Origin: an uncultured Holophagales bacterium
GTDB taxonomy: Bacteria; Acidobacteriota; Thermoanaerobaculia; UBA2201
Reading direction: 5' to 3'
DNA: 64,000 nucleotides
Assembly (NCBI GenBank): GCA_964603505.1
Contig: CAZRVT010000002.1
Location: 10,312 to 74,311, forward strand
Below are positions 3,476 through 50,638 of this stretch, in pieces (the first letter of the stretch is position 1; the number at the start of each line of letters is the position of its first letter). The position numbers were made by a program, and so were the translations under genes. Under the pieces are notes generated by a model, which searched no databases, had not been told where the DNA came from, and saw nothing but the letters and a program-made list of their open reading frames with translations.

Positions 3476-4825
3476 ATGACTAATCGATTTCTACGATTCA
3501 TCCTGGCTGCCCTGTTGCTGACGGGTCTGGCCTGCGGGCCCAAGGCGACCAGCACGGAGGAGTCGAAAAAGGCCCTCGACGCCGCCTACGAGAAGGCCAA
3601 CGCCGCCGTGGACGCCGCCAAGACGCCCCGGGAGAAAGCGGCCGCCTGCGCCGACTTCCTGAAGGCGCACCCCGAGTCCGAGCACACGATGGACATGCTC
3701 GAGACCCTCCTCTATTACCAGCTGGAGGAAGCCCGGGACGCCGCCGGGGCTCAACCCATCGTAGAGGGCCTCCTGGCCGGGGTCAAGGATCCGGAGCTGC
3801 TCCGCAAGATCAAGGTCGCCGGTCTCGCCATGTGGGCCAAGCTGGGGGACCAGGACATGGTGGCCGCGCGCGTGCGCGAGGTCTCCGTGGGGCCGCTCTC
3901 CTTCGACCAGCGGATGGCCATCGCCAACGCGGGAATGGAGACGGGGTTGTGGCCGATGGCCGAAGAGTATGCCGCCGGCGCGCTGATGGTGGCCACCCCC
4001 GAGGCCTTCAAGGCCGACCACCCGGGGCGGGAGTTCGCCCCCGACCGGATCGAACGCTACGTCAACCTCCGCAAGGCGGAGTGCCTGGCCGCCGCCGCGT
4101 GGGCCAGGGCCAACCTGGGCCGCTTCGAGCAGGCCTTCGCCACCTTCGAGCAAGCGCGCCCCTACACGAATTTCTCCTATCTGGGTTCCTCGGAGACCCC
4201 CTTCAACCTCTGGCTGGGCCGCACCCTGCTGATGCAGAAGGAATACGACAAGGCCTTCGAGACCCTCACCCCCGACGCCGTATTCGGCGGCACGCCGGAG
4301 GCGCTGGCGGCTTTGAAGGAGGTCTTCGTCGCCCAGACCGGCTCGGAGTTCGGGTTCGAGTCCAAGCTCGAGGAACTGCGCAACAAGCTGGCCAAAGCGG
4401 TGGTGGATTTCACCCTCCCCGACTACGCCGGCCGGGAAGTCACTTACGGCAAACAGAAGGAAGGCAAGGTGATGCTCCTGGCCTTCTGGTTCCCCACCTG
4501 AGGGGGATGCCGCGTGGAGTTGCCACGCCTCCAGCCGCTGTACGAGCAGTACAAGGACAAGGGGTTCGACATCATCGCCATCGAAGCGCGCCGCGACACC
4601 GACAACGCCAAGAAGCTGATCGCCGACCACAAGCTCACCTACACCTTCCTGGAAAACGGGGAGAACGACAAGGAAGTGGTCAGAAAGCTCTTTTCGGTCC
4701 GCGTCTTCCCCACCTCCTTCGTAATCGGGAAGGACAACAAGGTCTACTACTACCACCTGGGGTTCGAGGACGGGCAGGAAAAGGTCCTGGAAGAGGAGAT
4801 CAAGGTCCTGCTGGCGAAATCGTAG
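3476..4825 (+). CDS. Lipoprotein thiol:disulfide oxidoreductase (TlpA/ResA-like thioredoxin domain) with selenocysteine: in-frame TGA at 4499-4501 read as Sec, redox motif T-U-G-G-C; N-terminal ~300-aa helical lipoprotein domain
   Basis: Signal peptide plus lipobox LTGLAC. The sequence around the TGA, ...GKVMLLAFWFPT-TGA-GGCRVELPRLQPLYEQYKDKGF..., aligns residue for residue with the canonical TlpA FW-x-x-W-C-G-P-C-R-x-E-x-P-x-L-x-x-LY-x-x-YKDKGF. The frame continues uninterrupted (the track splits it into 3476..4501 and 4514..4825); a SECIS-like hairpin lies just downstream of the UGA. Confidence 0.7.
4512..4528 (+). promoter_or_regulatory. Candidate bacterial SECIS hairpin (GCGUGG-AGUUG-CCACGC) starting 11 nt after the UGA
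   Basis: 6-bp perfect stem with a 5-nt apical loop containing GUU, at the distance from the UGA expected for SelB-dependent recoding. Confidence 0.45.
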
Positions 4826-4853
4826 CCGGCAGTCGGTAGCCAGAAAAGCATTC

Positions 4854-4880
4854 GGGCGGGCCGTGGCGGCCCGCCCGTTT
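4854..4880 (+). terminator. Rho-independent terminator after the selenoprotein gene (GGGCGGGCC-gtggc-GGCCCGCCC then GUUUGCU)
   Basis: 9-bp GC stem directly downstream of the stop at 4825, followed by a T-rich run. Confidence 0.55.
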
Positions 4881-4895
4881 GCTATAATACAAGTA

Positions 4896-5324
4896 ATGGC
4901 CGCGCATCGCTCTATGTTGTTCTTGTTATGGCTGGTGCTTATTGCATCCAATGTTCACCCTTGCTCTTGTATCCCTACATCGGGGGGATTAGCAGGGATG
5001 ATTGAAGACGTAGATTCTGTCTTTCTTGGTCGAGTGATCTCAACAAATGTGGCGAGTGAAGAAGGATCCTCCTACATTGCGCATTTCCAAGTAATCAGAG
5101 TTTGGAAAGGTGCGAAGCAAGAAGAGAATTCTGTAATGACAGCCAATATTGGATCTTTATGTGGTGTTGATTTCATCCCTGGCCGCACATATCTTGTATT
5201 TTCAAGGAAGGGCGGGACCAACTGGTGCTTAGGGACAAAATCAGCCGATACAGCAAATAAGGAATTGAAACTGTTGGGTGATCCAATTTGGCAAAATCCC
5301 AAGGTTCGCGATTGGCATCCTTAA
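4896..5324 (+). CDS. Small secreted Cys-Ser-Cys protein resembling the TIMP / netrin-like (NTR) N-terminal domain; encoded in a low-GC islet
   Basis: Hydrophobic signal sequence, then the mature-like N-terminus CSCIP. Four Cys at relative positions ~1, 3, ~70 and ~98, consistent with TIMP N-domain disulfides C1-C70 and C3-C99. Conserved-looking blocks YIAHFQVIRVWKG and SLCGVDF...YLVF. TATAAT at 4883-4888 lies 7 nt upstream of ATG 4896; composition is clearly AT-richer than the flanks. Confidence 0.5.
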   Translation: MAAHRSMLFLLWLVLIASNVHPCSCIPTSGGLAGMIEDVDSVFLGRVISTNVASEEGSSYIAHFQVIRVWKGAKQEENSVMTANIGSLCGVDFIPGRTYLVFSRKGGTNWCLGTKSADTANKELKLLGDPIWQNPKVRDWHP

Positions 5325-5409
5325 AAGAATTAGTGAGCCAAACGAGTTGACCTGCCGGGCTCAGGCTTCGACCTTCCCCCTCCCCGCAGGCTAAAGCCTG
5401 CGGATACAT

Positions 5410-6309
5410 TCAAGCTTCCTGCTGCGCCTCATCTTTCGCTCCCTTCAGCGACGCCACGATGATCGCGGTGAAGATGAGCCCCATGCCGATGAACTGCGGC
5501 ACGCTTAAAGATTCCCTCAAAATGAAGAACGCCAGGATGGAGGCGCCGATGGGCTCGCCCAGAATGGTCACGGCCACCATGCCGGTCTTGAGGTGCTTGA
5601 GGGCCCAGTTGATGGTGGTGTGGCCGATGGCCTGGGGAAGGACGGCCATGGCGACAAGCGAAAGGTACGAGCTCCCCTTGAATCCCGAGACGGGGAGCCT
5701 TATCGCCAGGACCATGATCCACAGCCACACGGCGGAGAAGCCGTAGACGAGCGTGGCGTAGGCGAGGAGGTCCATCCGCTCGCGCATCCGGCTCCCGGTC
5801 ATCAGGTAGCCGCTGGCCATCACCGCCCCCAGCAGGGCCAGGGCGTCGCCCAGCACCGCGCTGGAGCCACCGGCGAGGAGCTGGTCCAGGCCGCCGTCGC
5901 CGAGGGCCAGGACCACGCTCCCGGCGAACGAGAGGGCGATCCCGGCGAGGAGGGCGAGCGGCTGGCGCTCCCTGAAGAGAATCCAGGAGAAGACGCCGAC
6001 GAAGATGGGGTTGGTGGTCACCAGGACGACGCTGGAGGCCACCGAGGTGTATTTCAGCGAGGTGACCCAGAAGGCGAAGTGGAGGGCCAAAAAGACGCTC
6101 CCCAGGAGGGCGCCCAGCCACGCCCGCCGCCCGAGGCCGCGGAAGGAGACCTGCTTCCACGCCGCGAGCAGGGCCATGATGACGGTGGCCATGGCCATCC
6201 GGTAGGCGGCGATGGTGATCGCCGGGACGTCGTCGCAGAACTTGATGAGGACCGAGGCGGTGGAGAGGCAGAGGATGCCGAGGGTGAGGATGATGATGGT
6301 CTTACCCAT
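5410..6309 (-). CDS. EamA/DMT-family transporter
   Basis: 10-TM duplicated EamA pattern; start MGKTIIILT chosen inside a longer spurious ORF. Confidence 0.8.
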   Translation of the reverse strand: MGKTIIILTLGILCLSTASVLIKFCDDVPAITIAAYRMAMATVIMALLAAWKQVSFRGLGRRAWLGALLGSVFLALHFAFWVTSLKYTSVASSVVLVTTNPIFVGVFSWILFRERQPLALLAGIALSFAGSVVLALGDGGLDQLLAGGSSAVLGDALALLGAVMASGYLMTGSRMRERMDLLAYATLVYGFSAVWLWIMVLAIRLPVSGFKGSSYLSLVAMAVLPQAIGHTTINWALKHLKTGMVAVTILGEPIGASILAFFILRESLSVPQFIGMGLIFTAIIVASLKGAKDEAQQEA

Positions 6310-7350: not shown

Positions 7351-8376
7351 CTAGAGCTCCACTTCCCTCAAGCGCTTCGCCGCGTCCTCCGGCAGGGTGG
7401 GGTTGATGTAGAACCCCGTGCCCCACTCGAAGCCGGCCATGCGCGTCAAGCGCGGAATGATCTCGATGTGCCAGTGGAAGTCCCACGGCAGGGTCTGCCA
7501 GTAGCCGGGGCGCTGGGGCTGGAGGGCGATGCTGGGGGCGATATGGAAGACGAAGTTGTAGGGCGGGTCGTTCAACGCGGCGCGGAGGCGGGCGAATGCC
7601 CCCTGGAGGGTCCGGGCCAGCGCGGTGAGCATGGGGCCCTCGCAGGCGAGGAAGTCGTGGGCGTGCCGGCGGGGCGCGATGAAGAGCTCGTAGGGGAACT
7701 GGCTGGCATAGGGGGCCAAAGTGACGAAATCGGCATCCGCGGCCACCACCCGATCTCGCCGCTCCAGCTCTTCGCGGAGGATGTCGCAGACGAGGCACCG
7801 TTCCTTGGCCATATAGTGCGCGCGCATGGACTCCAGCTCGATGGCCACGGTGCGCGGAGTGACGGGGGTGGCGATGAGCTGGCTGTGGGGGTGCTCGAGG
7901 GACGCCCCCGCGGCGGCCCCGTGGTTCTTGAAGAGGAGGATGTACCGGAATCGGGGGTCGCCCGAGAGATCGCGCACCCGGGCTTGGTAGGTCCGGAGGA
8001 TCCGTTCGATGTGCTCGACGGGGTGATCGGCGAAGCCGCGGCGGTGGTCGGGCCCCTCGATGATCACCTCGTGGGCCCCGATGCCCGCCATCCGGTCGTA
8101 GACGCCCACCCCCGTGCGGTCCAGATCCCCCTCGATGCGGAGGGCGGGGAACTTGTTGGGGACGACGCGGACCGCCCAGCCGGGTTGGTTGGGCCAGGTC
8201 CCCTCGCGCAGGGCCCAGATCTCGGGCGGGGTCGTCGCCTCGTGGGTGGGGCAGAAGGGGCAAAACACTTCCTGTTTTTCCGGCGTCGGCGGCAGGAACT
8301 CCATCGGCCGGCCGCTCCGCTCCGGAGCGATGATGACCCACCGTTTCTGGATGGGGTCGTGGCGCAGGTCAGACAT
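7351..8376 (-). CDS. galT: Galactose-1-phosphate uridylyltransferase-like HIT-family nucleotidyltransferase
   Basis: CPFCP zinc motif, FKNHGAAAGASLEHPHSQL active-site His-x-His-x-Gln, duplicated HIT fold; overlaps the upstream GH57 gene by 8 nt. Confidence 0.8.
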   Translation of the reverse strand: MSDLRHDPIQKRWVIIAPERSGRPMEFLPPTPEKQEVFCPFCPTHEATTPPEIWALREGTWPNQPGWAVRVVPNKFPALRIEGDLDRTGVGVYDRMAGIGAHEVIIEGPDHRRGFADHPVEHIERILRTYQARVRDLSGDPRFRYILLFKNHGAAAGASLEHPHSQLIATPVTPRTVAIELESMRAHYMAKERCLVCDILREELERRDRVVAADADFVTLAPYASQFPYELFIAPRRHAHDFLACEGPMLTALARTLQGAFARLRAALNDPPYNFVFHIAPSIALQPQRPGYWQTLPWDFHWHIEIIPRLTRMAGFEWGTGFYINPTLPEDAAKRLREVEL

Positions 8377-10548: not shown

Positions 10549-11559
10549 ATGATTGAGATCCAGGTGCACCCGAGCGATATCCGCAAGAAGGTGCGCTATT
10601 ATTTTTTTTCGTCGCGCCAGCTGAAACTCCTGGGCCTCGGAGCGGTGGGGCTGATCGCGCTCTTCGTCTGGTCCATCCTGGTGGCGCCGCAGAGCTTCAG
10701 CCACCAAGTCAAGAAGGCGAAGTACCGCCAAGAGGTCAAGAAAAACCTCGCCCTCACCAACACCATCCAGGTGCTGCTGGGTTCGCTCAAACGGCATTCC
10801 GAGACCCTCGAGGCCAACCGACAACGGTTGGAGAACCTCTTTTACATCTTCGGCGTTCCCCTCACCTCGTCGGGGCAGGGCGGGATGGCCTTCACCCCCA
10901 TCCCCGCCAATCTGCCCAGTGATCAGGCCCTGCCCGCATGGTACGACCGGGTGCAGGAGAAGCTGACGCGCTCGGAGAAGTTGCTGGAGGAGCTGGAGGC
11001 CCACGAATCGTTCTTCCGGAGCATCACCACCGCCGTCCCCAGCGTCTGCCCCATCCCTGCCGGCTCCTTCGTCGTCTCCTCGGCCTTCGGCTACCGCATC
11101 AACCCGTTCACTCAAAAGCAGGACTTCCACCAGGGGCTCGACTTCGCGTGCCCCGAGGGGACGCCGGTGTGGGCCGCGGGCGACGGCACGGTGACCTACG
11201 CGGGGCGATACCCGCTCTCGACGTCGGTGGCGTGGTGGCGCTACGGCAACCTGGTCGCCGTCCAGCACGACCGGTATTTCATCACGGTCTATGCCCACCT
11301 CTCCACGGTCGGCGTGCGCGCGGGGGAGAAGGTGAAGCGGTGGCAGAAGATCGGGCGGACCGGCAACACCGGTTGGAGCACGCGCCCCCATCTGCACTAC
11401 GAGGTGCGCACCAACCTCTCGGGGGAGGACTTCGCCCCCATCGATCCTCGCATCTACATGCTCGACCTCGCCTGGCGGGACATGGACAAGATCCTGGCCC
11501 AGGCCCGTTCCACGCAGGGCTCCCAGTTCGAGCCCCTGCCATCAACCTTCAGGAGGTAG
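10549..11559 (+). CDS. M23-family peptidase (LytM/NlpD-like murein endopeptidase) with N-terminal membrane anchor
   Basis: HxxxD...GNTGWSTRPHLHYEVR M23 signature; TM helix near the N-terminus. Confidence 0.8.
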   Translation: MIEIQVHPSDIRKKVRYYFFSSRQLKLLGLGAVGLIALFVWSILVAPQSFSHQVKKAKYRQEVKKNLALTNTIQVLLGSLKRHSETLEANRQRLENLFYIFGVPLTSSGQGGMAFTPIPANLPSDQALPAWYDRVQEKLTRSEKLLEELEAHESFFRSITTAVPSVCPIPAGSFVVSSAFGYRINPFTQKQDFHQGLDFACPEGTPVWAAGDGTVTYAGRYPLSTSVAWWRYGNLVAVQHDRYFITVYAHLSTVGVRAGEKVKRWQKIGRTGNTGWSTRPHLHYEVRTNLSGEDFAPIDPRIYMLDLAWRDMDKILAQARSTQGSQFEPLPSTFRR

Positions 11560-26278: not shown

Positions 26279-26866
26279 GTGAACACGCTCAAGGTCTTCT
26301 TTTTGATGTTCGTCCTCACCGCCATCTTCCTGCTGGTGGGGGACTGGGTCGGCGGGCAGCGGGGGATGGTCATCGCCCTTGTATTTGGCGGCCTCTTCAA
26401 TCTGGTTAGTTATTGGTTCTCCGACCGGATCGTTCTGGCGATGTACGGCGCCCAGCAAGTGACCGAGGCCGAGGCCCCGGAGTTATATTCGATCGTCCGG
26501 GAGCTGGCGACGGCGGCGAACCTCCCCATGCCGCGGCTGGCCGTCATCCCCCAGGAGGCCCCGAACGCCTTCGCCACCGGCCGAAACCATTCGCACGCCG
26601 TGGTCGCCGTGACCGAGGGGATGATGCGGCTGGTGAACCGCGAGGAGCTGCGGGGGGTCCTGGCCCACGAGCTGGCCCATGTCCGCAACTACGACATGCT
26701 CATCGGCACCTTCGCGGCCACCTTGGCCGCCGCGATCGCCTTCCTGCCCCGGATGCTCTTCGTCTTCGGGGGCGGGGACCGGGAGGACCGGAGCCCGCTG
26801 GGGCCCCTTCCGCTTGACAGTCTTGGAGATAATGGGTATACTTTTTATGCTTATACAGGCTCGTAG
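26279..26866 (+). pseudogene. htpX: htpX-like M48 zinc metalloprotease, 3'-truncated: HEXXH (HELAH) present but the C-terminal ~90 aa, including the third zinc-ligand region, are missing; tail overlaps the tRNA-Val promoter and the tRNA 5' end
   Basis: N-terminal TM helices plus HELAHVRNYDMLIG as in HtpX, but the ORF ends at 195 aa where homologues continue (~285 aa); the last ~17 codons read through a consensus TTGACA-17-TATACT promoter and into tRNA-Val. Confidence 0.5.
26814..26842 (+). promoter_or_regulatory. Consensus sigma70-type promoter for the tRNA-Val genes (TTGACA-17 bp-TATACT)
   Basis: TTGACA 26814-26819 and TATACT 26837-26842 with a 17-bp spacer, 14 nt upstream of the mature tRNA 5' end. 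Confidence 0.55.
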
Positions 26867-33148: not shown

Positions 33149-34047
33149 GTTTTCCCGGTCCGGCCGAGGCGGCCACCCCGGTCCGGCCGAAATTCCAGCA
33201 CAACTATCCCCTCGCCATCGGTCTCTTCTTGCTGACCCTGGCCACGACCACGCTGATGGGCGGACTATGGACGGCGGAGCCGACCCCCGTCTTCACTTGG
33301 CAACAGCTCGTCCTCCGATTCGTTTCCTGGGAATATCTGGCCGCCGGGATGCGCTTTTCCGTCCCCCTGATGTTCATTCTGCTGTGCCACGAGCTGGGCC
33401 ATTATCTCGCTTGCCGCAAGTACCGTGTGGACGCCACCCTGCCCTATTTTCTCCCCGCCCCCTTGGGCGTGGGCACCTTCGGGGCCTTTATGAAGATCAA
33501 GGACCCCATCCCCTCCAAACCCATCCTTTTCGACATTGGGGTGGCGGGGCCTTTGGCGGGCCTCCTGGCCGCGCTGCCGTTCGCCGTTTGGGGGATCCAT
33601 CATTCGACCCCGACCCTCGTTCAAGGCGGGGAGGGGATGATCACGCTCGGCGAGCCCCTGTTGTTCAAGCTGATCACCTGGTCTCTCTGGCGGATGGGGG
33701 AGGGAGCCACTCTTCTCCTCCACCCGTTCGCCCTCGCCGCCTGGATCGGCATGCTGGCCACCATGCTCAACCTTCTGCCGTTCGGCCAGCTCGACGGGGG
33801 GCACATCCTCTACGCCCTGGCGGGACGGCACCAGCGCCGGCTCGCCCTGCCCCTCTTCCTCGCCCTGCTGTTCATGGGATGGTTCTGGTGGGTGTGGCTC
33901 CTGTGGGCCGCCTTCATTCTCTTCATGGGGCCCTTCCACCCGCGCCTGTGGGACGAGCCCATCCCGCTCGACTGGAAACGGAAGCTCCTCGGCGCCGTCG
34001 CCGGGTTTGTCTTCATCCTCACCTTCATGCCGGTCCCGGTCCGGTAA
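33145..34047 (+). CDS. Site-2 protease family (M50) membrane metalloprotease
   Basis: Polytopic membrane protein with HExxH in a TM helix (LLCHELGHYLA) and a downstream LDGG motif. Confidence 0.75.
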   Translation: MSFPGPAEAATPVRPKFQHNYPLAIGLFLLTLATTTLMGGLWTAEPTPVFTWQQLVLRFVSWEYLAAGMRFSVPLMFILLCHELGHYLACRKYRVDATLPYFLPAPLGVGTFGAFMKIKDPIPSKPILFDIGVAGPLAGLLAALPFAVWGIHHSTPTLVQGGEGMITLGEPLLFKLITWSLWRMGEGATLLLHPFALAAWIGMLATMLNLLPFGQLDGGHILYALAGRHQRRLALPLFLALLFMGWFWWVWLLWAAFILFMGPFHPRLWDEPIPLDWKRKLLGAVAGFVFILTFMPVPVR

Positions 34048-44394: not shown

Positions 44395-46665
44395 TCAGCT
44401 CCGAATGGCGAGGAGCCGGTGGGTGCCCAGGGCGGTGAAGGCGATCAGGGGAGTCAGCGCGGCGGTGAGCGGATGGAGGGCGCCGAGGTCTCCGAGCTTG
44501 GCGCACACCGCGGCCGAGGCCCACAAGACGAGGCCGACGAGAATGCTGCGGCCCAGGCCGGCCCAGGGGGAGCCGCTCCGGAGGCCCGCCAGCGTGGCGA
44601 CCAGGGCGAGAAGGACGAGGAGCGCCAGAAACCATGGATAGAGGATCTTCTGCCAGAGCCGGACCTGCCACTCCACCGGATTGTAGCCCACGCCGCGCAG
44701 GGCCCGGATGTAGCCTGCCAGTTGCAGGGCGTTCATCATGCGGGGCTCGTCGAGCACTTGGCCGAAGAGCGCGGGGGTGTCCGGAATGGGGAGCACCGCG
44801 TCCTTTCGTTCATCGTATTGCACCGTGGGGCCGGGGCGGATCGTGCGGACCCATCCGTCCGGCGTCACCCAGCGGCCTGCCTGAAACTGCGCTTGGGCGC
44901 ACGACCAGTGCTGGTCCAGCTCCCCTCCGGGCGGGATGCGGAAGGCGTTTAGATTGTAAAGAAGGGCGTTCCGCTGGTCATACCCGCTGTAGCGGTAGAT
45001 CCAGCCGTCGGAGCCGCTGAGATAGAGATCGCGGGAAAAGAATCGGCCCACCTTGGCGCGGGCCGGTTTGGCGAGGATGGTCTTTCGAAGTTCGAGCATC
45101 TTGCGGTTGGACAGGGGCAGGTAGACCTCCGAAATGGCGAAGAGCAAAGCCCCGAAGGCCACCACGGTCAGCATGAAGGTGGCCGCCACCCTCTGCCAGG
45201 AGATCCCCAGGCTCTTGAGCGCCGAGAGTTCGCGGTGCCGCTCGAGGGCGGTCAGGGCCAGAGCCGTGGCGCCGAGCGCGGCGAGGGGGAGGATGTAGTC
45301 GTAGGTCACTTGGGGGAGGGAGAAGAGGTAGTAGGCCGCCACCGTGCGGAGGGGGACCTGGTGCCGCTGGACGTCGTCGGCCAGCTGCGAGAAATCGACC
45401 CCCACATAAAGGATCATGATGGTGGCGATGCCGAGGAGGAGGAAGGGGAGCCAAGTCCGGAGGAGATAGGCGTCCAGGACGAACGGGAACGCTCGGCGGA
45501 GGTCCCGCTCCTGCGGGAGGCCCCGGAGCCGGATGCGCGCCGCCCAGCCGCGCCAGGGGAGGGGAGGAAACCGGAACGACGGGATCATGGCGTAGGCGGC
45601 CGCCAGCATGCCGAACCCCAGGACGGGGGCCCACAGGGCGACCCCTGCGGCGATCTTGCCCTCGACGGCCAGATTTTCGCCCAGAGTGAGGAATATATAA
45701 TCGCTAAGAATGATCAAGAGCGAAAGCACGAAGATCGGACCGCGTCCGGCCTCCCGCGCCGAGGTCCGGCGCAGACCAAGGGCGAAGGCGAGGAAGAGGA
45801 AGACCAGCGTGGTCGCTGGGATGGCCAGCCGCTTATGGAACTCCGCCGCCGATCGTCGGCGGAGCCGATCGTCCGTGGACCCCATGCCGGAAACGAGCTC
45901 CTCCATGGTCCGCTCGCGGAAGCCCTTGGCATAGGTGGCCGTGGAATCCGTCCAGGGAGGATAAAGGAGCAGATCCTGCTCTCCGGCGAAGTTGACCTGG
46001 TACTTCTGGCCCGCGGAATACAGCAAGTTCCGGGACCCCAGCAGCTTCAGCCAGATTTGATTGCCGTCGGGGTTCAGGTAGAGTTCGCCCCGCCGCGCGC
46101 AGAGGACCTGATCCACGAGGGGCTGGCTATAGTCGAAGATGATGACATCTCGCCAGAGCCGCTTGTTCTCGGAGATTTCGCGCATGAAGAGAATCTTGCC
46201 GGGAAAGGAGTCGAGGAAGGTTTTGGCCTGGACATTTTGGGTGAGGGAGGATTGAAGCAGCTCCAGCCGGTACCGCACCAATCGACTGTTGCTCCAGGGC
46301 AGGATGTAGACCATGATGATCAGGTTCAACAATACGAACGCCATGCCGGAGGCGATAATCGGAACCATAACACGCTTCCGTGAGAAGCCGAGAGAATAGA
46401 AGGCGAGGATCTCGCGCCCTGCCTGCATCTTGCTGACTGCGAACAGGACGCCGTACAGCACGGCCATCGGAATCGTGACTCCGAGGATGGAAGGAAAGCC
46501 CAGCAGGATGATGAAGAGGGATTTGTAAAGGGGGATGCCATGCCGGAGCGAGAGCTCCGAAACTTCGAGGAATGCCCGAACGAGAAACAAACTGGTGTAG
46601 AGGAGCAGGCCAAGGAGAACGGCCGGCATGATCTCGCCGCGCAGATATCGGTTCAGAAGGCGCAT
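44395..46665 (-). CDS. Fused LptF-LptG-type (YjgP/YjgQ family) LPS export permease, two permease modules in one 756-aa polypeptide
   Basis: Two successive 6-TM YjgP/YjgQ-like halves, each with a periplasmic beta-jellyroll insert; N-terminus MRLLNRYL(R) characteristic of LptF/G. Confidence 0.7.
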   Translation of the reverse strand: MRLLNRYLRGEIMPAVLLGLLLYTSLFLVRAFLEVSELSLRHGIPLYKSLFIILLGFPSILGVTIPMAVLYGVLFAVSKMQAGREILAFYSLGFSRKRVMVPIIASGMAFVLLNLIIMVYILPWSNSRLVRYRLELLQSSLTQNVQAKTFLDSFPGKILFMREISENKRLWRDVIIFDYSQPLVDQVLCARRGELYLNPDGNQIWLKLLGSRNLLYSAGQKYQVNFAGEQDLLLYPPWTDSTATYAKGFRERTMEELVSGMGSTDDRLRRRSAAEFHKRLAIPATTLVFLFLAFALGLRRTSAREAGRGPIFVLSLLIILSDYIFLTLGENLAVEGKIAAGVALWAPVLGFGMLAAAYAMIPSFRFPPLPWRGWAARIRLRGLPQERDLRRAFPFVLDAYLLRTWLPFLLLGIATIMILYVGVDFSQLADDVQRHQVPLRTVAAYYLFSLPQVTYDYILPLAALGATALALTALERHRELSALKSLGISWQRVAATFMLTVVAFGALLFAISEVYLPLSNRKMLELRKTILAKPARAKVGRFFSRDLYLSGSDGWIYRYSGYDQRNALLYNLNAFRIPPGGELDQHWSCAQAQFQAGRWVTPDGWVRTIRPGPTVQYDERKDAVLPIPDTPALFGQVLDEPRMMNALQLAGYIRALRGVGYNPVEWQVRLWQKILYPWFLALLVLLALVATLAGLRSGSPWAGLGRSILVGLVLWASAAVCAKLGDLGALHPLTAALTPLIAFTALGTHRLLAIRS

Positions 46666-46744
46666 TCGCTTTTAATTATAGCACGAATATTACGTCCGAT
46701 AATATATATTATGTAAAATAAATGATAATAATTAAAACCCTTCC

Positions 46745-47614
46745 CTATTGGGAGGCTTTTAATTTCTTCTTTGTTTTCTGATCGTCTTGGGTGATCCCCT
46801 CTTTCTCGATTCGCTCAATTATAGAGTGAAGAAAAGAAATCAGCGATTCTTTGTCGATTCCTTCCTTTTTAAACTTTAATTTTATTTCGATTGGATGATC
46901 GGATGACTTCGCTTTAAATAAAGCAAAATCCGTCGCTCTAGAGTTCTCTTTGCGCATTCTTCTTATCACTTCCCTACCTTTGCCCTCCATAATTGCGTCG
47001 ATTAATTCGCGCATTTTCACTAAGTCGGGCGATTTTGCTATTTCAAGGAGCATCGATTTAGCGCTTATGTCGGCATGCCGACAGAGACTCTTAATCTCGT
47101 CGGGCATCGAAGCAATTGCAAGGATTTCGGTAATGGTAGATCTTTTTTTCCCGATCTTCTGAGAAATCATTTCATGCGTATAGCCGTATTTTTCTTGAAG
47201 AACTTGATATCCCTGAGCTTCCTCAAAGGGATCAAGTTCCTGGCGCTGGAGATTCTCTACAAGAGCGACTTCCAAACTTTGAGCGTCGTTTTCCACGGGT
47301 ATCTCGATGCACGGAAGATGACTCAATCCGCAGGCCAATGCAGCGTGATAGCGCCGTTCACCAGCAATGATTTTGCATTTGCCGTCTTCGAGGGGCTGAA
47401 CAAGAAGAGGCTCTAATACCCCATAATTGTGAATGGATTGAATCAATCCCTCCAGGTCGCCGAGATTCTTTCTTGGCTGATCGGGATTGACGACGATCGC
47501 TTCAATCGGGATCATCTTCCCAAGCGAATGATCGTCCCGGCTGAACAGGGTGTCGATAAAATGTGGCGAATGACGCATTTTTTTATCGTCTGGAAGTCCC
47601 CTTTTTTTAGACAC
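46745..47614 (-). CDS. parB: Chromosome/plasmid partitioning protein ParB (Spo0J-like)
   Basis: ParB/Srx N-domain (IVVNPDQPR..., GERRYHAA) and HTH region; 8-nt overlap with parA; markedly lower GC than the genome background. Confidence 0.8.
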   Translation of the reverse strand: MSKKRGLPDDKKMRHSPHFIDTLFSRDDHSLGKMIPIEAIVVNPDQPRKNLGDLEGLIQSIHNYGVLEPLLVQPLEDGKCKIIAGERRYHAALACGLSHLPCIEIPVENDAQSLEVALVENLQRQELDPFEEAQGYQVLQEKYGYTHEMISQKIGKKRSTITEILAIASMPDEIKSLCRHADISAKSMLLEIAKSPDLVKMRELIDAIMEGKGREVIRRMRKENSRATDFALFKAKSSDHPIEIKLKFKKEGIDKESLISFLHSIIERIEKEGITQDDQKTKKKLKASQ

Positions 47615-48362
47615 GGCTCAGCACCTCTTCTGTTAATTGATAATATTCAAGGGCTCCACGGGAGCTTGGCGCGAAGGAGAAGATGTCTTCTTTATAGGCC
47701 GGCGCCTCTTCGAGGCGGACATTTTTGTGGATGATTGTTTTGAACAACTTGGCCCCAAAGGTCTTGTTGATCTGCTGGTGAATGTCTCGGGAGAGAATCG
47801 TGCGGCCATCGTATATGGTTAATAGTACACCGAGGATTTGGAGGGAGGGGTTCACCCGTTTCTTGACTTTGTCGATGGTTTCCACGAGATCGTCGGTCCC
47901 TTCCAAAGCAAAATACGAGGATTGAATGGGCACTAAGACATGGGTGGAAGCGACCATGCAGTTAACGGTCAGAATTCCAAGGGTGGGAGGCGTATCGATT
48001 ACAATATATTGGTATTCACCCACGAGGGGCTGAAGAGCGTCTTTAAGGCAAAAATGGGCCTCCAATTCGCCCGCGAGTGCGTTCTCTAACTTGGCCAAAG
48101 CAATGGCGGAAGGTGCAATATCTAGATGCTCGGTGCGTGTATGCTGGATAATGTCACGGATCCTGCAACCTCCGGGCACAAGGGCGTCGTAGATGTTTCG
48201 ACTTCCGGGCTCTGGTCGAATAAAAGAAATCGTCGCATTGGCTTGAGGGTCCATGTCGACGAGCAGGGTGCGAATGCCCTTGCGGGCCAATGCGGCGGAG
48301 AGATTGATTGCTGTGGTCGTTTTCCCCACGCCCCCTTTTTGATTGGCGACCGAAATGATCAT
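47607..48362 (-). CDS. parA: ParA/Soj-family partitioning ATPase
   Basis: Deviant Walker A KGGVGKTTTAINL, MIISVANQKGG N-terminus, Walker B IVIDTPP. Confidence 0.85.
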   Translation of the reverse strand: MIISVANQKGGVGKTTTAINLSAALARKGIRTLLVDMDPQANATISFIRPEPGSRNIYDALVPGGCRIRDIIQHTRTEHLDIAPSAIALAKLENALAGELEAHFCLKDALQPLVGEYQYIVIDTPPTLGILTVNCMVASTHVLVPIQSSYFALEGTDDLVETIDKVKKRVNPSLQILGVLLTIYDGRTILSRDIHQQINKTFGAKLFKTIIHKNVRLEEAPAYKEDIFSFAPSSRGALEYYQLTEEVLSRV

Positions 48363-48373
48363 GGCGCGCTTCC

Positions 48374-48859
48374 CTACATTTTGTATTTTCCGAGCGATTC
48401 CGGATCCAGGTCTTCAAGCCATCGTCGAAGTTTCTCCGCTTCATCCCCTTCGGAGGAAATGTCAATGCTCTGGGCCCGCTCCAAGACCGTGGAGTCGGCG
48501 AAAATCGGGCACCCGCTTCGGACGGCCAGGGCGATGGCATCGGAAGGACGGCAGTCGATGAGGTGCTCCGACTCCCCCACCCGCAGGCGGATTACCGCGA
48601 AAAAGATGTTGTCCTCCAACGCGCTGATCAGGACATCCACGATGCGGGCGCCTAATTTATCGAGGACGGCATTGAACAGATCATGAGTCATGGGGCGGGG
48701 TGAGGTGACGCTGTCCAATTTCATGGCGATCGCGTTGGCCTCAAAAATGCCAATCCAGATCGGAAGATAGCGCGTAGCGCCCTCCTGTTGGAGGATAAGA
48801 ACGGGCATGTTGGACACCGGATCGAGAATGATCCCTTTAAGAACCATGGCGATTTGCAT
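48374..48859 (-). CDS. Bifunctional nuclease family protein (BFN/DUF151-like)
   Basis: LDPVSNMPVLILQ...YLPIWIG..EA.AIA......PRPMTHDL...CRPSDAIALA pattern of the bifunctional-nuclease domain. Confidence 0.65.
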   Translation of the reverse strand: MQIAMVLKGIILDPVSNMPVLILQQEGATRYLPIWIGIFEANAIAMKLDSVTSPRPMTHDLFNAVLDKLGARIVDVLISALEDNIFFAVIRLRVGESEHLIDCRPSDAIALAVRSGCPIFADSTVLERAQSIDISSEGDEAEKLRRWLEDLDPESLGKYKM

Positions 48860-48967
48860 AGAAATGGCCTTAGTGTAGGAGATGGCAACTCGTTTGTCAA
48901 GGGGCGGATCTTGAATTCAGGAGAGCGTTCGCGATACAATGCGTTATCAGACCTAAAGGAGAATCTT

Positions 48968-50638
48968 ATGCGCGCCATCATGTTCGGATTCCTCTTGTTT
49001 TCATGTCTCGCAGCGGCCCAATCCACGGCCAAACCAGATCCACGCGCCTTCGTGGCGGCGATGACCGAGCGGGTCGCACCCATGGCAAAGGCGATAGCCC
49101 TTAATTATTGGGAAGCGACCGCAACCGGGCGGCAAGAGCTTTATGCCCGGCAAGGGGAGCTCGAGCTGCAGTTGCGCAAGGTCTTCGCCGATCGGGCAGG
49201 CTTCGAAGCCCTCAAAGCGTTTCGGTCCGATAGCCGCATTACCGATCCCTTGCTCCGCCGCCAGATTGAGGTGCTGTATCTGTCGTTTTTAGAAAACCAG
49301 ATTGATCCGGAATTGATGGAGAAAATAGTCGCCCTTGGGAGCGCCATTGAGGGCAAATTCAACACCCACCGAGCGGAATTTGAAGGAAAGAAAGTAGCGG
49401 ACAACACGCTGGCAGAGGTTCTGAAGACCGACACCGACGAGGCCCGACGAAAAGCCGCCTGGGAGGCCTCCAAAACCGTTGGCGCCGTCGTTGTCTCCGA
49501 CCTGCTTCAGCTCGTCCGGTTGCGCAATGAGGCGGCGCGGCAGCTGGGGTTCCGCAATTATTACGAGATGCGGCTGGCCGTCAATGAGCAGGATCCTCGC
49601 GAGATTGGACGAATCTTTGAAGAGTTGGCCAAGGCCACCGAAGAGCCTTTCCTGAAGGTGAAAGACAAGATCGATGCCGCGATCGAGAAACGCTTCGGGA
49701 TCACCCGCGCCTCGATTCGTCCCCATCACTATCAGGATTTCTTTTTTCAAGAGATCCAAGAAGTTGGCGATGTGAACATGGACAGCCAGTTGAAGGACAA
49801 GGACGTTCGAAAAATTGCCGAGTCCTTTTACAATAGTATCGGGCTTTCGGTCACGGCCATGCTGGACCGTTCCGATCTGTATGAGCGGGAAGGCAAATAC
49901 CAGCATGCCTACTGCACCGACATCGACCGGCATGGCGACGTACGCACCATGTGCTCCCTGCGCAACAACCGGTATTGGCTGGAGACCCTGATGCACGAGC
50001 TCGGGCATGGCGTTTACTGCATGAATATCGATCGGACGCTTCCCTGGCTTTTGCGGGAGGAGGCGCACACCTTCACCACCGAGGCGATCGCGGAATTGTT
50101 CGGCACTTTGCCCACCAATCCCGTTTGGCTCAAAAAGGCGGCGGGCATTCCCGGCCCCGTGGTGGACACATGGGCCCCGACGCTCGAACTGGAACGGAAG
50201 ATGGGGCTGTTGATCTTCTGCCGCTGGAGTTTAGTCATGCTCCATTTTGAGCGCGCCCTTTATGAAAATCCGGACCAGGACCTCAACCGCCTCTGGTGGG
50301 ACCTCGTGGAGAAATACCAGAAGGTTCGTCGACCCGATGGACGCAATCTCCCCGACTGGGCGGCCAAGATTCATCTCGCCAGCTATCCTGTGTATTACCA
50401 TAATTACATGCTTGGCAACCTGCTGGCCTCGCAGTTGCTGCATTACATGGCCTCCAAGATCACCGGTCAGAAGGAGATCGCAATGCTGGACTTCACTGGA
50501 GACAAGCGCCTTGGGAAATACCTGCAGGAAGCGATCTTTGCCCCCGGAAAAACCCTGAGGTGGGACGAACTCATCCGCAAGGCCACCGGGGAGCCCCTGA
50601 CCGCAAAGTATTTTGCCATGGATGTGGCGATCAAGTGA
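48968..50638 (+). CDS. Secreted zinc metallopeptidase, ACE-like (M2-family peptidyl-dipeptidase type), HEXXH
   Basis: Signal peptide (MRAIMFGFLLFSCLAAAQS); gluzincin HELGHG motif with a downstream Glu; overall ~560-aa all-helical architecture and C-terminal YPxYYxxY-like pattern as in ACE homologues; family call tentative (M2 vs M3/M32). Confidence 0.55.
   Translation: MRAIMFGFLLFSCLAAAQSTAKPDPRAFVAAMTERVAPMAKAIALNYWEATATGRQELYARQGELELQLRKVFADRAGFEALKAFRSDSRITDPLLRRQIEVLYLSFLENQIDPELMEKIVALGSAIEGKFNTHRAEFEGKKVADNTLAEVLKTDTDEARRKAAWEASKTVGAVVVSDLLQLVRLRNEAARQLGFRNYYEMRLAVNEQDPREIGRIFEELAKATEEPFLKVKDKIDAAIEKRFGITRASIRPHHYQDFFFQEIQEVGDVNMDSQLKDKDVRKIAESFYNSIGLSVTAMLDRSDLYEREGKYQHAYCTDIDRHGDVRTMCSLRNNRYWLETLMHELGHGVYCMNIDRTLPWLLREEAHTFTTEAIAELFGTLPTNPVWLKKAAGIPGPVVDTWAPTLELERKMGLLIFCRWSLVMLHFERALYENPDQDLNRLWWDLVEKYQKVRRPDGRNLPDWAAKIHLASYPVYYHNYMLGNLLASQLLHYMASKITGQKEIAMLDFTGDKRLGKYLQEAIFAPGKTLRWDELIRKATGEPLTAKYFAMDVAIK

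Follow-up and report, generated by a model that had tools for sequence, protein, structure and literature searches.

Within the window, by which we mean the whole 64,000-nucleotide stretch of DNA analysed here, a gene for a TIMP/NTR-like protein sits in an islet between two hairpins (Table 1). Its upstream neighbour, 70 bp away, encodes an exported thioredoxin-like (redoxin-type) selenoprotein with an in-frame TGA, and its downstream neighbour is an EamA gene that converges on it. The upstream hairpin is a strong terminator (-33.2 kcal/mol, z = -5.1, with none of 200 shuffled sequences folding as well), whereas the downstream one, with an 8-bp stem, a z of -2.3 for its region and no T-run, is real but weak. 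Alignment with two relatives of the locus, designated L008 and L009, showed that this downstream hairpin is conserved in neither of them; it is a weak terminator candidate for either gene. An earlier note on this DNA had placed the islet between a terminator hairpin and a second hairpin; both were found, the second in this modest form. An Rfam scan of positions 4300-5500 gave no match.

The 4896-5324 open reading frame is a real gene. The same frame was called as a gene, annotated as a hypothetical protein, on JGI contig Ga0394875_0000199, a 114-kb metagenome contig from sample 3300037501. A start at GTG 4863 was rejected because that codon is part of the terminator hairpin and L008 has kept ATG 4896; two antisense frames (5072-5302 and 5173-5409) were discarded as shadows of the TIMP-like gene.

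Table 1. Coordinates of the features of the locus and of the zinc enzymes encoded elsewhere in the window
Feature	Position	Strand	Basis
Terminator hairpin of the thioredoxin-like selenoprotein gene, GC-rich, left edge of the islet	4847-4883	+	Folding; kept in L008 and L009
Extended -10 box, TGCTATAAT	4880-4888	+	Sequence; box and spacing conserved in L008
TIMP/NTR-like gene, 142 codons plus stop (ATG at 4896, TAA at 5322-5324), product of 142 amino acids	4896-5324	+	Gene call, homologues, dN/dS
Predicted signal peptide, residues 1-22: n-region MAAHRS, h-region MLFLLWLVLIA, c-region SNVHP	4896-4961	+	Sequence; position in the family
Predicted mature NTR/OB-fold domain, 120 residues, exactly four Cys (precursor 23, 25, 89, 111)	4962-5321	+	
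Cys-Ser-Cys-Ile-Pro, predicted mature N-terminus, counterpart of TIMP-2 CSCSP	4962-4976	+	Family alignment; TIMP-2 alignment
Codon of Cys89 (mature Cys67), motif SLCG	5160-5162	+	Present in all 60 aligned sequences; opposite AVCG of TIMP-2
Codon of Cys111 (mature Cys89)	5226-5228	+	Invariant; aligned with TIMP-2 Cys101
Short hairpin CCGCAGGC/GCCTGCGG in the gap between the TIMP-like gene and the EamA gene that converges on it	5384-5403		Folding
M23 zinc peptidase	10549-11559		
HtpX-like enzyme	26279-26866		HELAH motif, not Pfam
Probable site-2 protease	near 33388		HELGH motif only
M2/M3-like enzyme	48788-50638		

The TATAAT that had been reported 7 nt upstream of the ATG was confirmed at 4883-4888, and a TG at 4880-4881 makes it an extended -10 box. 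Because this box stands 7 nt before ATG 4896 and no Shine-Dalgarno sequence was found ahead of that codon, the transcript of the TIMP-like gene is probably leaderless. The orthologue in L008 keeps both the box and the 7-nt spacing, with a different spacer sequence. The same TATAAT-then-ATG layout was seen at the window genes starting at 897, 50661 and, on the minus strand, 46665, so that leaderless expression looks native to the organism; other genes of the window carry ribosome-binding sites of the AAAGGAG type.

Composition and history of the islet

Measured over 200-nt intervals, GC content was 0.415-0.465 at positions 4900-5300 as against 0.65-0.73 in the flanks. The open reading frame had a GC of 0.45 and a GC3 of 0.42, compared to GC3 values of 0.89-0.93 in seven neighbouring genes, which confirms the earlier description of a low-GC islet in a background of about two-thirds G+C. 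The GC of the gene minus that of its surroundings was -0.205. For 198 other members of its protein family, the same difference averaged -0.004 (sd 0.035, minimum -0.092). Because the gap is this large here and about zero elsewhere in the family, a foreign, lower-GC origin of the gene is well supported.

Relatives of the locus were traced through a flanking 341-aa protein and were found in three states. One, L012, was identical to the window. The second, L008, whose flanks are 78-90% identical, contains at its positions 7446-7877 an intact orthologue that had not been called as a gene; the encoded protein is 67% identical to the window protein and shares Pro-Cys-Ser-Cys-Ile-Pro with it, and its gene has a GC3 of 0.40. 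In the third, L009 (flanks 79-87% identical), the terminator hairpin is kept and the frame is reduced to its final ~100 nt, a stump in which Cys111 has already been replaced. We considered whether L009 might be an empty site, as expected for a recent insertion, and rejected this since the 3′ stump identifies it as a deletion remnant. The islet does not have the marks of a recent one: the gene is present at the same site in L008, a remnant is present in L009, and no flanking direct repeats were found. The orthologue and the remnant indicate that the acquisition is old and predates the split from the two related lineages. The horizontal acquisition suggested by the earlier note is thus in agreement with the composition, but it is not a recent event. 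A tblastn search against plasmids and phages revealed no real mobile copies, and a viral structure library gave no match. An operon with the upstream redoxin gene was rejected on account of the intervening terminator, the break in GC3 and the independent loss of the TIMP-like gene.

Comparison of the window gene with its L008 orthologue gave a pS of 0.69, which is saturated, a dN of 0.245 and a dN/dS of about 0.13, and therefore the gene is under purifying selection; dS for the adjacent redoxin gene was 0.84. These values bear on the possibility that the islet holds a foreign gene that is silent or in decay and has no function in its host at present. Such decay would fit the extremely foreign codon usage (GC3 0.42 against 0.9), the reduction of the L009 copy to a 3′ stump and an evolution faster than that of the flanks (69% nucleotide identity versus 78-90%). 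Nevertheless, with synonymous sites saturated between them, two lineages both have an uninterrupted frame at the low dN/dS just given; all four Cys and the motifs of the family have been kept, as have the promoter box and its distance from the ATG, so we consider decay very improbable. To judge from the loss in L009, the gene is dispensable in that one lineage.

The TIMP-like family and its relation to animal TIMPs

An exhaustive phmmer search (E <= 1e-3) against 1.84 billion representatives of 50% identity clusters retrieved 2132 homologous cluster representatives, the best of them with E = 2.4e-17 and 40% identity, while a word-indexed protein search with the single sequence returned only the sequence itself. 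An alignment of 60 members (A1) showed an N-terminal hydrophobic leader, invariant Cys at precursor positions 23, 25, 89 and 111 (mature 1, 3, 67 and 89), an equally invariant G45 and nearly invariant WKG, CG..F and Y-L-V motifs. A degenerate DNA pattern back-translated from WKG-x(15-17)-CGxxFxxGxxY[LIVM]V[YF], for which ~0.03 matches would be expected by chance according to our own estimate, had matches in at least 119 species-representative genomes and at least 120 metagenome contigs, and in one IMG/VR contig. Among the genome matches listed were Paenibacillus, Bacillus, Brevibacillus, Lysinibacillus, Sporosarcina, Chloroflexota, cyanobacteria, Planctomycetia and Acidobacteriota, as well as Saprospiraceae, Rhodothermales, Longimicrobium, Myxococcales, Gammaproteobacteria and Patescibacteria, and the phyla spanned among the matches listed include Bacillota, Chloroflexota, Cyanobacteria, Planctomycetota, Acidobacteriota, Bacteroidota and Myxococcota. 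Bacterial homologues had been presumed to be rare, and this proved wrong because so many cluster representatives and, even under a strict DNA pattern, so many species were matched: the minimal prokaryotic form of a TIMP, a single domain with two predicted disulfides, is widespread. In the databases, many siblings already carry a PF00965 match, and a UniRef entry bears the name 'Tissue inhibitor of metalloproteinase'. Our search of the literature found no study of the bacterial family and no biochemical data for any member. Reviews treat the TIMP family as metazoan (PMC9409782, PMC4860685), and the authors of a study on the Listeria protein Tim found no record of bacterial TIMP-like proteins (PMC8235301).

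The window protein searched alone against Pfam did not match PF00965, and its score against NTR PF01759 (E = 0.27, 11.5 bits) fell below the cut-off of 21.9; an NCBIfam search with it gave no match either. A WD40 match, the sole result of a single-sequence search of PDB sequences, was rejected as spurious. When 60 homologues were compared with Pfam, 28 matched TIMP PF00965 (best 5e-10), 5 matched NTR and 6 matched agrin NtA. The Pfam comparison that the earlier note had suggested thus came out negative for the window protein by itself and positive for its family. Likewise, the A1 profile run against PDB sequences recovered N-TIMP-2 (6e-9), TIMP-3 (3e-6) and TIMP-1 (3e-4), with its first Cys falling on mature residue 1 of all three.

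In these alignments the four family Cys correspond to C1, C3, C72 and C101 of TIMP-2, the family segment ...VWKG lies opposite ...MFKG, and CGxxF...YLVY lies opposite CGVSL...YLIAG; the two blocks that HMMER aligns to TIMP-2 are the same ones that had been singled out before. Mature Cys67 aligns with TIMP-2 Cys72 (TIMP-1 Cys70), which in TIMPs is the disulfide partner of Cys1, and mature Cys89 aligns with TIMP-2 Cys101 (TIMP-1 Cys99), the partner of Cys3. The Cys1-x-Cys3 start with Ser at position 2 is present in the window protein (CSC, then IP), for which disulfides Cys1-Cys67 and Cys3-Cys89 are predicted by position. The two later Cys had been put at about +68 and +96; their actual mature positions are 67 and 89, and the claimed correspondence to the C1-C70 and C3-C99 pairs stood. 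The third N-domain disulfide of TIMPs (C13-C124) is absent from the mature window protein, which has only four Cys, and the TIMP C-terminal domain with its three disulfides is absent too, as the chain ends ~30 residues after mature Cys89.

A single-sequence AlphaFold model was poor (pLDDT 59.6) and was replaced by an alignment-based model, in which the predicted fold is an NTR/OB five-stranded beta-barrel with flanking helices. Identity of the window protein to TIMPs is 14-21%. The family profiles and the predicted structure support the original description of a TIMP/NTR-like protein, and we hold with near certainty that the window protein is an exported homologue with the TIMP fold. With animal TIMPs (TIMP-1 to -4; PF00965, MEROPS I35) it shares the N-domain fold, the Cys-Ser-Cys start and the four-Cys pattern; it differs from them in being bacterial, in consisting of a single domain of ~120 residues that lacks the C-terminal domain and C13-C124, and in having Pro at position -1 relative to the first Cys. 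In other modules of this fold, namely PCOLCE NTR, agrin NtA, meteorin NTR, complement C345C and hookworm AceES-2, the domain is usually internal or C-terminal, without a free N-terminal Cys. Their Cys patterns differ from that of the bacterial family, whose profiles prefer TIMPs.

The predicted mature N-terminus

In TIMPs, the CSCSP-type N-terminal segment binds the catalytic zinc and the S1′ pocket. The precursor of the window protein begins with MAAHRSMLFLLWLVLIASNVHP followed directly by CSCIPTS, so the hydrophobic leader and the CSCIP that had been noticed in the frame are both there. Among 264 members of the family, the first Cys is directly preceded by Ala in 90%, by Pro in 4% and by Ser in 4%; A, V, S, G or T stands at -3 in 92%, and -2 is usually occupied by Tyr, His, Phe, Leu, Arg or Gln. 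Ala at -1 together with a small or aliphatic residue at -3 places a predicted signal peptidase I cut directly before Cys1 throughout the family. In the same 264 members, Ser (77%) or Thr (9%) follows the first Cys, together 86%, and 45% have Pro at mature residue 5. A lipoprotein was rejected because there is no lipobox ([LVI][ASTVI][GAS]C): the window protein reads V-H-P-C, and most members of the family have Ala at -3 and one of Tyr, His, Phe, Arg and Gln at -2. In 37% of members the C-terminus is a hydrophobic tail that probably serves as a membrane anchor; the window protein has none.

Both the window protein (V-H-P before the Cys) and its L008 orthologue (V-N-P) have Pro at -1, a residue that violates the classical -3/-1 rule. 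The sole canonical alternative, a cut after L-I-A, would leave SNVHP, five residues, ahead of Cys1. Because Pro and not Ala occupies -1, exposure of Cys1 in the window protein is uncertain. Pro at this position recurs in 11 of the 264 members, always as A/V/G-x-P and in two of the five closest relatives, and the variant has therefore been tolerated in evolution. The exposed Cys-Ser-Cys end on which the earlier note had staked its proposal is thus predicted for the family, with A-x-A before the Cys in ~90%, and is in doubt for the window protein and its orthologue. In TIMPs, an N-terminal extension weakens binding, and residues left ahead of Cys1, as the alternative cut would leave them here, abolish inhibition. 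An N-terminal Ala extension is used in one report to lower the affinity of N-TIMP2 (PMC11416218).

Protease neighbours and a possible inhibitory role

A motif scan of neighbouring genes followed by Pfam showed metzincin genes adjoining family members in 4 of 224 loci. In a Leptolyngbyaceae cyanobacterium (L025), a gene for a serralysin-type M10B protease with RTX repeats lies 78 bp upstream on the same strand, and in L158 a matrixin gene (PF00413, 32 bits) lies 166 bp downstream, also on the same strand. In L224, the TIMP-like gene overlaps by 9 nt with a gene for an M12/M10-like HEXXHXXGXXH protein whose Pfam matches are below the curated cut-offs, and in L036 a Met-zincin DUF4953 gene is placed in divergent orientation. 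Among ~600 genes located more than 1.5 kb away, no Pfam-confirmed metalloprotease was noted; a few of these genes match HEXXH by motif. As a sign of function, the pairing with metzincins is suggestive, in small numbers: in about 98% of the 224 loci sampled, no metalloprotease gene adjoins the TIMP-like gene, and most genes of the family stand alone. Neighbours were not conserved, either among seven loci inspected individually or in a clustering of neighbours over 119 genomes, where the recurrent ones were generic (ABC ATPase, ECF sigma factors, kinases, SDR, GNAT). In the 64-kb window no metzincin was found, the HEXXH enzymes being only of the M48, M50 and M2/M3-like types. In a further locus, L083, an M2 (ACE-like) peptidase gene is located upstream of two tandem TIMP-like genes.

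The neighbourhood also bears on whether the protein might serve thiol, metal or redox chemistry, with its Cys-x-Cys binding copper or zinc or with the protein acting as substrate or partner of the adjacent thioredoxin-like selenoprotein. The gene does lie next downstream of that selenoprotein gene, a redoxin-CopD pair occurs 1.5-3.5 kb from the TIMP-like gene in one clade (L007, L015-L017), and in Viridibacillus a DUF305 gene and a gene for a Cys-rich protein are found upstream of it. We think a redox role improbable nonetheless, since a strong terminator and a jump in GC3 from 0.90 to 0.42 separate the two genes of the window, L009 retains an intact redoxin gene beside a destroyed TIMP-like gene, redoxin is no recurrent neighbour in the 119 genomes, and the four Cys all fall at positions of the two structural disulfides of TIMPs.

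In our preferred reading, the islet is a functional gene from a lower-GC donor, and its product is an exported protein of one domain that is homologous to the N-terminal, inhibitory part of TIMPs. We give somewhat better than an even chance to this reading as a whole, in which the window protein acts as a metalloprotease inhibitor in the manner of a TIMP; here the cleavage site of the window copy, the disulfide bonds, the inhibition of a protease and the identity of the target are all what we infer. The gene's own extended -10 promoter would drive transcription, probably giving a leaderless mRNA, and the pre-protein would be exported by Sec, after which signal peptidase I would remove residues 1-22 and leave Cys23 as the free N-terminus. 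The two predicted disulfides would pin CSCIP against the Ser-Leu-Cys-Gly connector on the five-stranded OB barrel, giving a wedge of the TIMP type. A zinc endopeptidase, most probably a metzincin, would receive this wedge in its active-site cleft, with its zinc chelated through the alpha-amino and carbonyl groups of Cys1 and with Ser2 directed into S1′. In TIMPs, for example in the MMP-3/TIMP-1 structure 1UEA, it is indeed the alpha-amino and carbonyl groups of Cys1 that chelate the catalytic zinc, and residue 2 that enters S1′. In a diderm host such as this one, the protein would work in the periplasm or be released, and the enzyme held in check may be a metalloprotease of the cell itself or a foreign one.

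The main competing explanation accepts the TIMP/NTR fold and takes the protein for an exported binding module, for instance for a ligand of the cell envelope or matrix, tethered C-terminally to the membrane in many relatives and inhibiting nothing. We judge this to be a serious though lesser possibility. The majority of domains with the NTR fold, such as complement C345C, netrin and agrin NtA, do not act as inhibitors, and the missing third disulfide, the scarcity of adjacent metalloproteases, the lack of a metzincin in the window, Pro at -1 and the loss of the gene in L009 likewise speak against the inhibitor reading. However, the features that the family conserves, a free Cys1 at the predicted cut, Ser or Thr at position 2, Pro5 and an S/A-x-C-G connector tied to Cys1, are those that matter for inhibition by TIMPs and not for the fold; furthermore, the profiles match TIMPs far better than other NTR families, and the four metzincin pairings are independent. 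A broader proposal builds on the inhibitor reading and is put forward tentatively, as we think it rather doubtful: an ancient and large bacterial family would share the free-Cys1 wedge, directed against the cells' own metzincins or those of competitors and predators, with mostly stand-alone genes for protective anti-protease factors hopping between phyla, the window copy being an AT-rich one maintained by selection or repeated allele replacement.

The serralysin inhibitors AprI/Inh of Pseudomonas, Serratia and Erwinia (MEROPS I38) are small periplasmic proteins, encoded beside a serralysin, whose N-terminal residues contact the active-site zinc. The analogy is functional only, since their fold is unrelated, they have no sequence similarity to the TIMP-like family and the window gene has no protease neighbour; in L025, the TIMP-like gene comes directly after the serralysin/RTX gene, an arrangement that mirrors aprA-aprI. 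These serralysin inhibitors are mentioned in the report on Listeria monocytogenes Tim, an exported protein with a predicted TIMP-like structure that is genetically paired with the metzincin Mtz, carries an LTAC lipobox as a lipoprotein and is cleaved by its protease (PMC8235301). Tim resembles TIMPs in structure only, whereas the family described here has sequence homology to them, a predicted A-x-A site before the Cys and no lipobox. Inhibition can be put to a direct test at the few loci where the gene has a matrixin or serralysin partner. If the members do inhibit metzincins, they would represent a new class of bacterial protease regulators and a natural library of small, stable scaffolds for inhibitors of MMP/ADAM-type enzymes, and they would bear on where the TIMP mechanism originated; were the free-Cys1 reading to hold for bacteria, inhibition of the TIMP type would not be an animal invention.

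Two minor observations concern the evolution of the islet. Both orthologues remain at a GC3 of 0.40-0.42 despite saturated synonymous divergence, in genomes whose GC3 is near 0.9, and this persistence is a separate small puzzle about the assimilation of foreign genes. In addition, over the 34-codon tail that can be compared in the three lineages, L008 and L009 resemble one another more than either of them resembles the window, whereas the flanking gene groups the window with L009, a conflict that gives a weak hint of allele exchange.

Metzincin partners and multidomain members

TIMP-like genes lie beside metzincin genes in four loci that come from different phyla, namely L025 (a Leptolyngbyaceae cyanobacterium), L158, L224 and L036 (see table), and these pairs are the best candidates for an experimental test of inhibition. 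In L224, the TIMP-like sequence forms the N-terminal domain of a 645-aa protein, and further family members are as long as 400-530 aa; thus, the TIMP-like domain is also found in multidomain proteins. The window itself encodes a predicted exported M2/M3-like zinc peptidase, whose gene lies in surroundings of rather low GC (0.49-0.50). In the Longimicrobium locus L083, two tandem TIMP-like genes are located directly downstream of an M2 peptidase gene, and peptidases of this type may be linked to the TIMP-like proteins.

Features of the window and of loci carrying TIMP-like genes
Feature	Location	Strand	Remarks
Upstream selenoprotein gene	window 3476-4825	+	in-frame TGA at 4499-4501
ParB	window 46745-47614	-	in low-GC stretch
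ParA	window 47607-48362	-	pairs with ParB; low-GC stretch
Exported M2/M3-like zinc peptidase (predicted)	window 48788-50638	+	HELGH motif; Pfam M2 E = 2e-25
Serralysin with RTX repeats + TIMP-like gene	L025 884-3132		
Matrixin + TIMP-like gene	L158 706-2139		
M12/M10-like protein + TIMP-like gene	L224 2326-5168		
645-aa multidomain protein	L224 3234-5168	-	N-terminal TIMP-like domain (PF00965), DUF4199, LVIVD repeats
DUF4953 Met-zincin + TIMP-like gene	L036 5454-7999		

Loss and synteny of the TIMP-like gene

The related lineage L009 is a clear case of loss of the TIMP-like gene through deletion: only its last ~100 nt persist (L009 4553-4660), the break point lies directly 3′ of the promoter-region GTTTGC, and the fourth Cys has become Gly in the remnant. 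Elsewhere, the gene is flanked on both sides by short-chain dehydrogenase genes in one clade (L007, L015-L017, L027, L037 and L126) that includes two Dehalococcoidia MAGs, an arrangement that is lineage-specific synteny; a redoxin-CopD pair lies 1.5-3.5 kb from the TIMP-like gene in L007 and L015-L017. Searching the IMG/VR viral contig collection with the degenerate DNA pattern of the family gave a single match, at 8560-9141 of L257 (UViG_3300049427_000004, 178 kb), a putative viral contig.

Selenoprotein gene, probable leaderless transcripts and a ParAB block

The in-frame TGA of the upstream gene is read through, and in the product a TPR-like lipoprotein continues into a thioredoxin/redoxin fold; the motif of this fold, FWFPT-U-GGC-R, carries U-x-x-C instead of C-x-x-C. 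The same split into 341 + 103 aa is present in the relatives L008 and L009. About 12 nt 3′ of the UGA, a GCGUGG/CCACGC hairpin could act as a SECIS element; an Rfam search of this region (window 4300-5500) gave no match.

Several further genes (at 897, 46665 on the minus strand, and 50661) carry TATAAT 3-10 nt 5′ of their start codons and lack a Shine-Dalgarno sequence; in this organism, leaderless mRNAs seem to be in use side by side with AAAGGAG-led genes. The GC minimum of the whole window (0.34) falls within 46451-48250, the stretch of the parA and parB genes, which is a second compositionally foreign block of the genome besides the TIMP-like islet.
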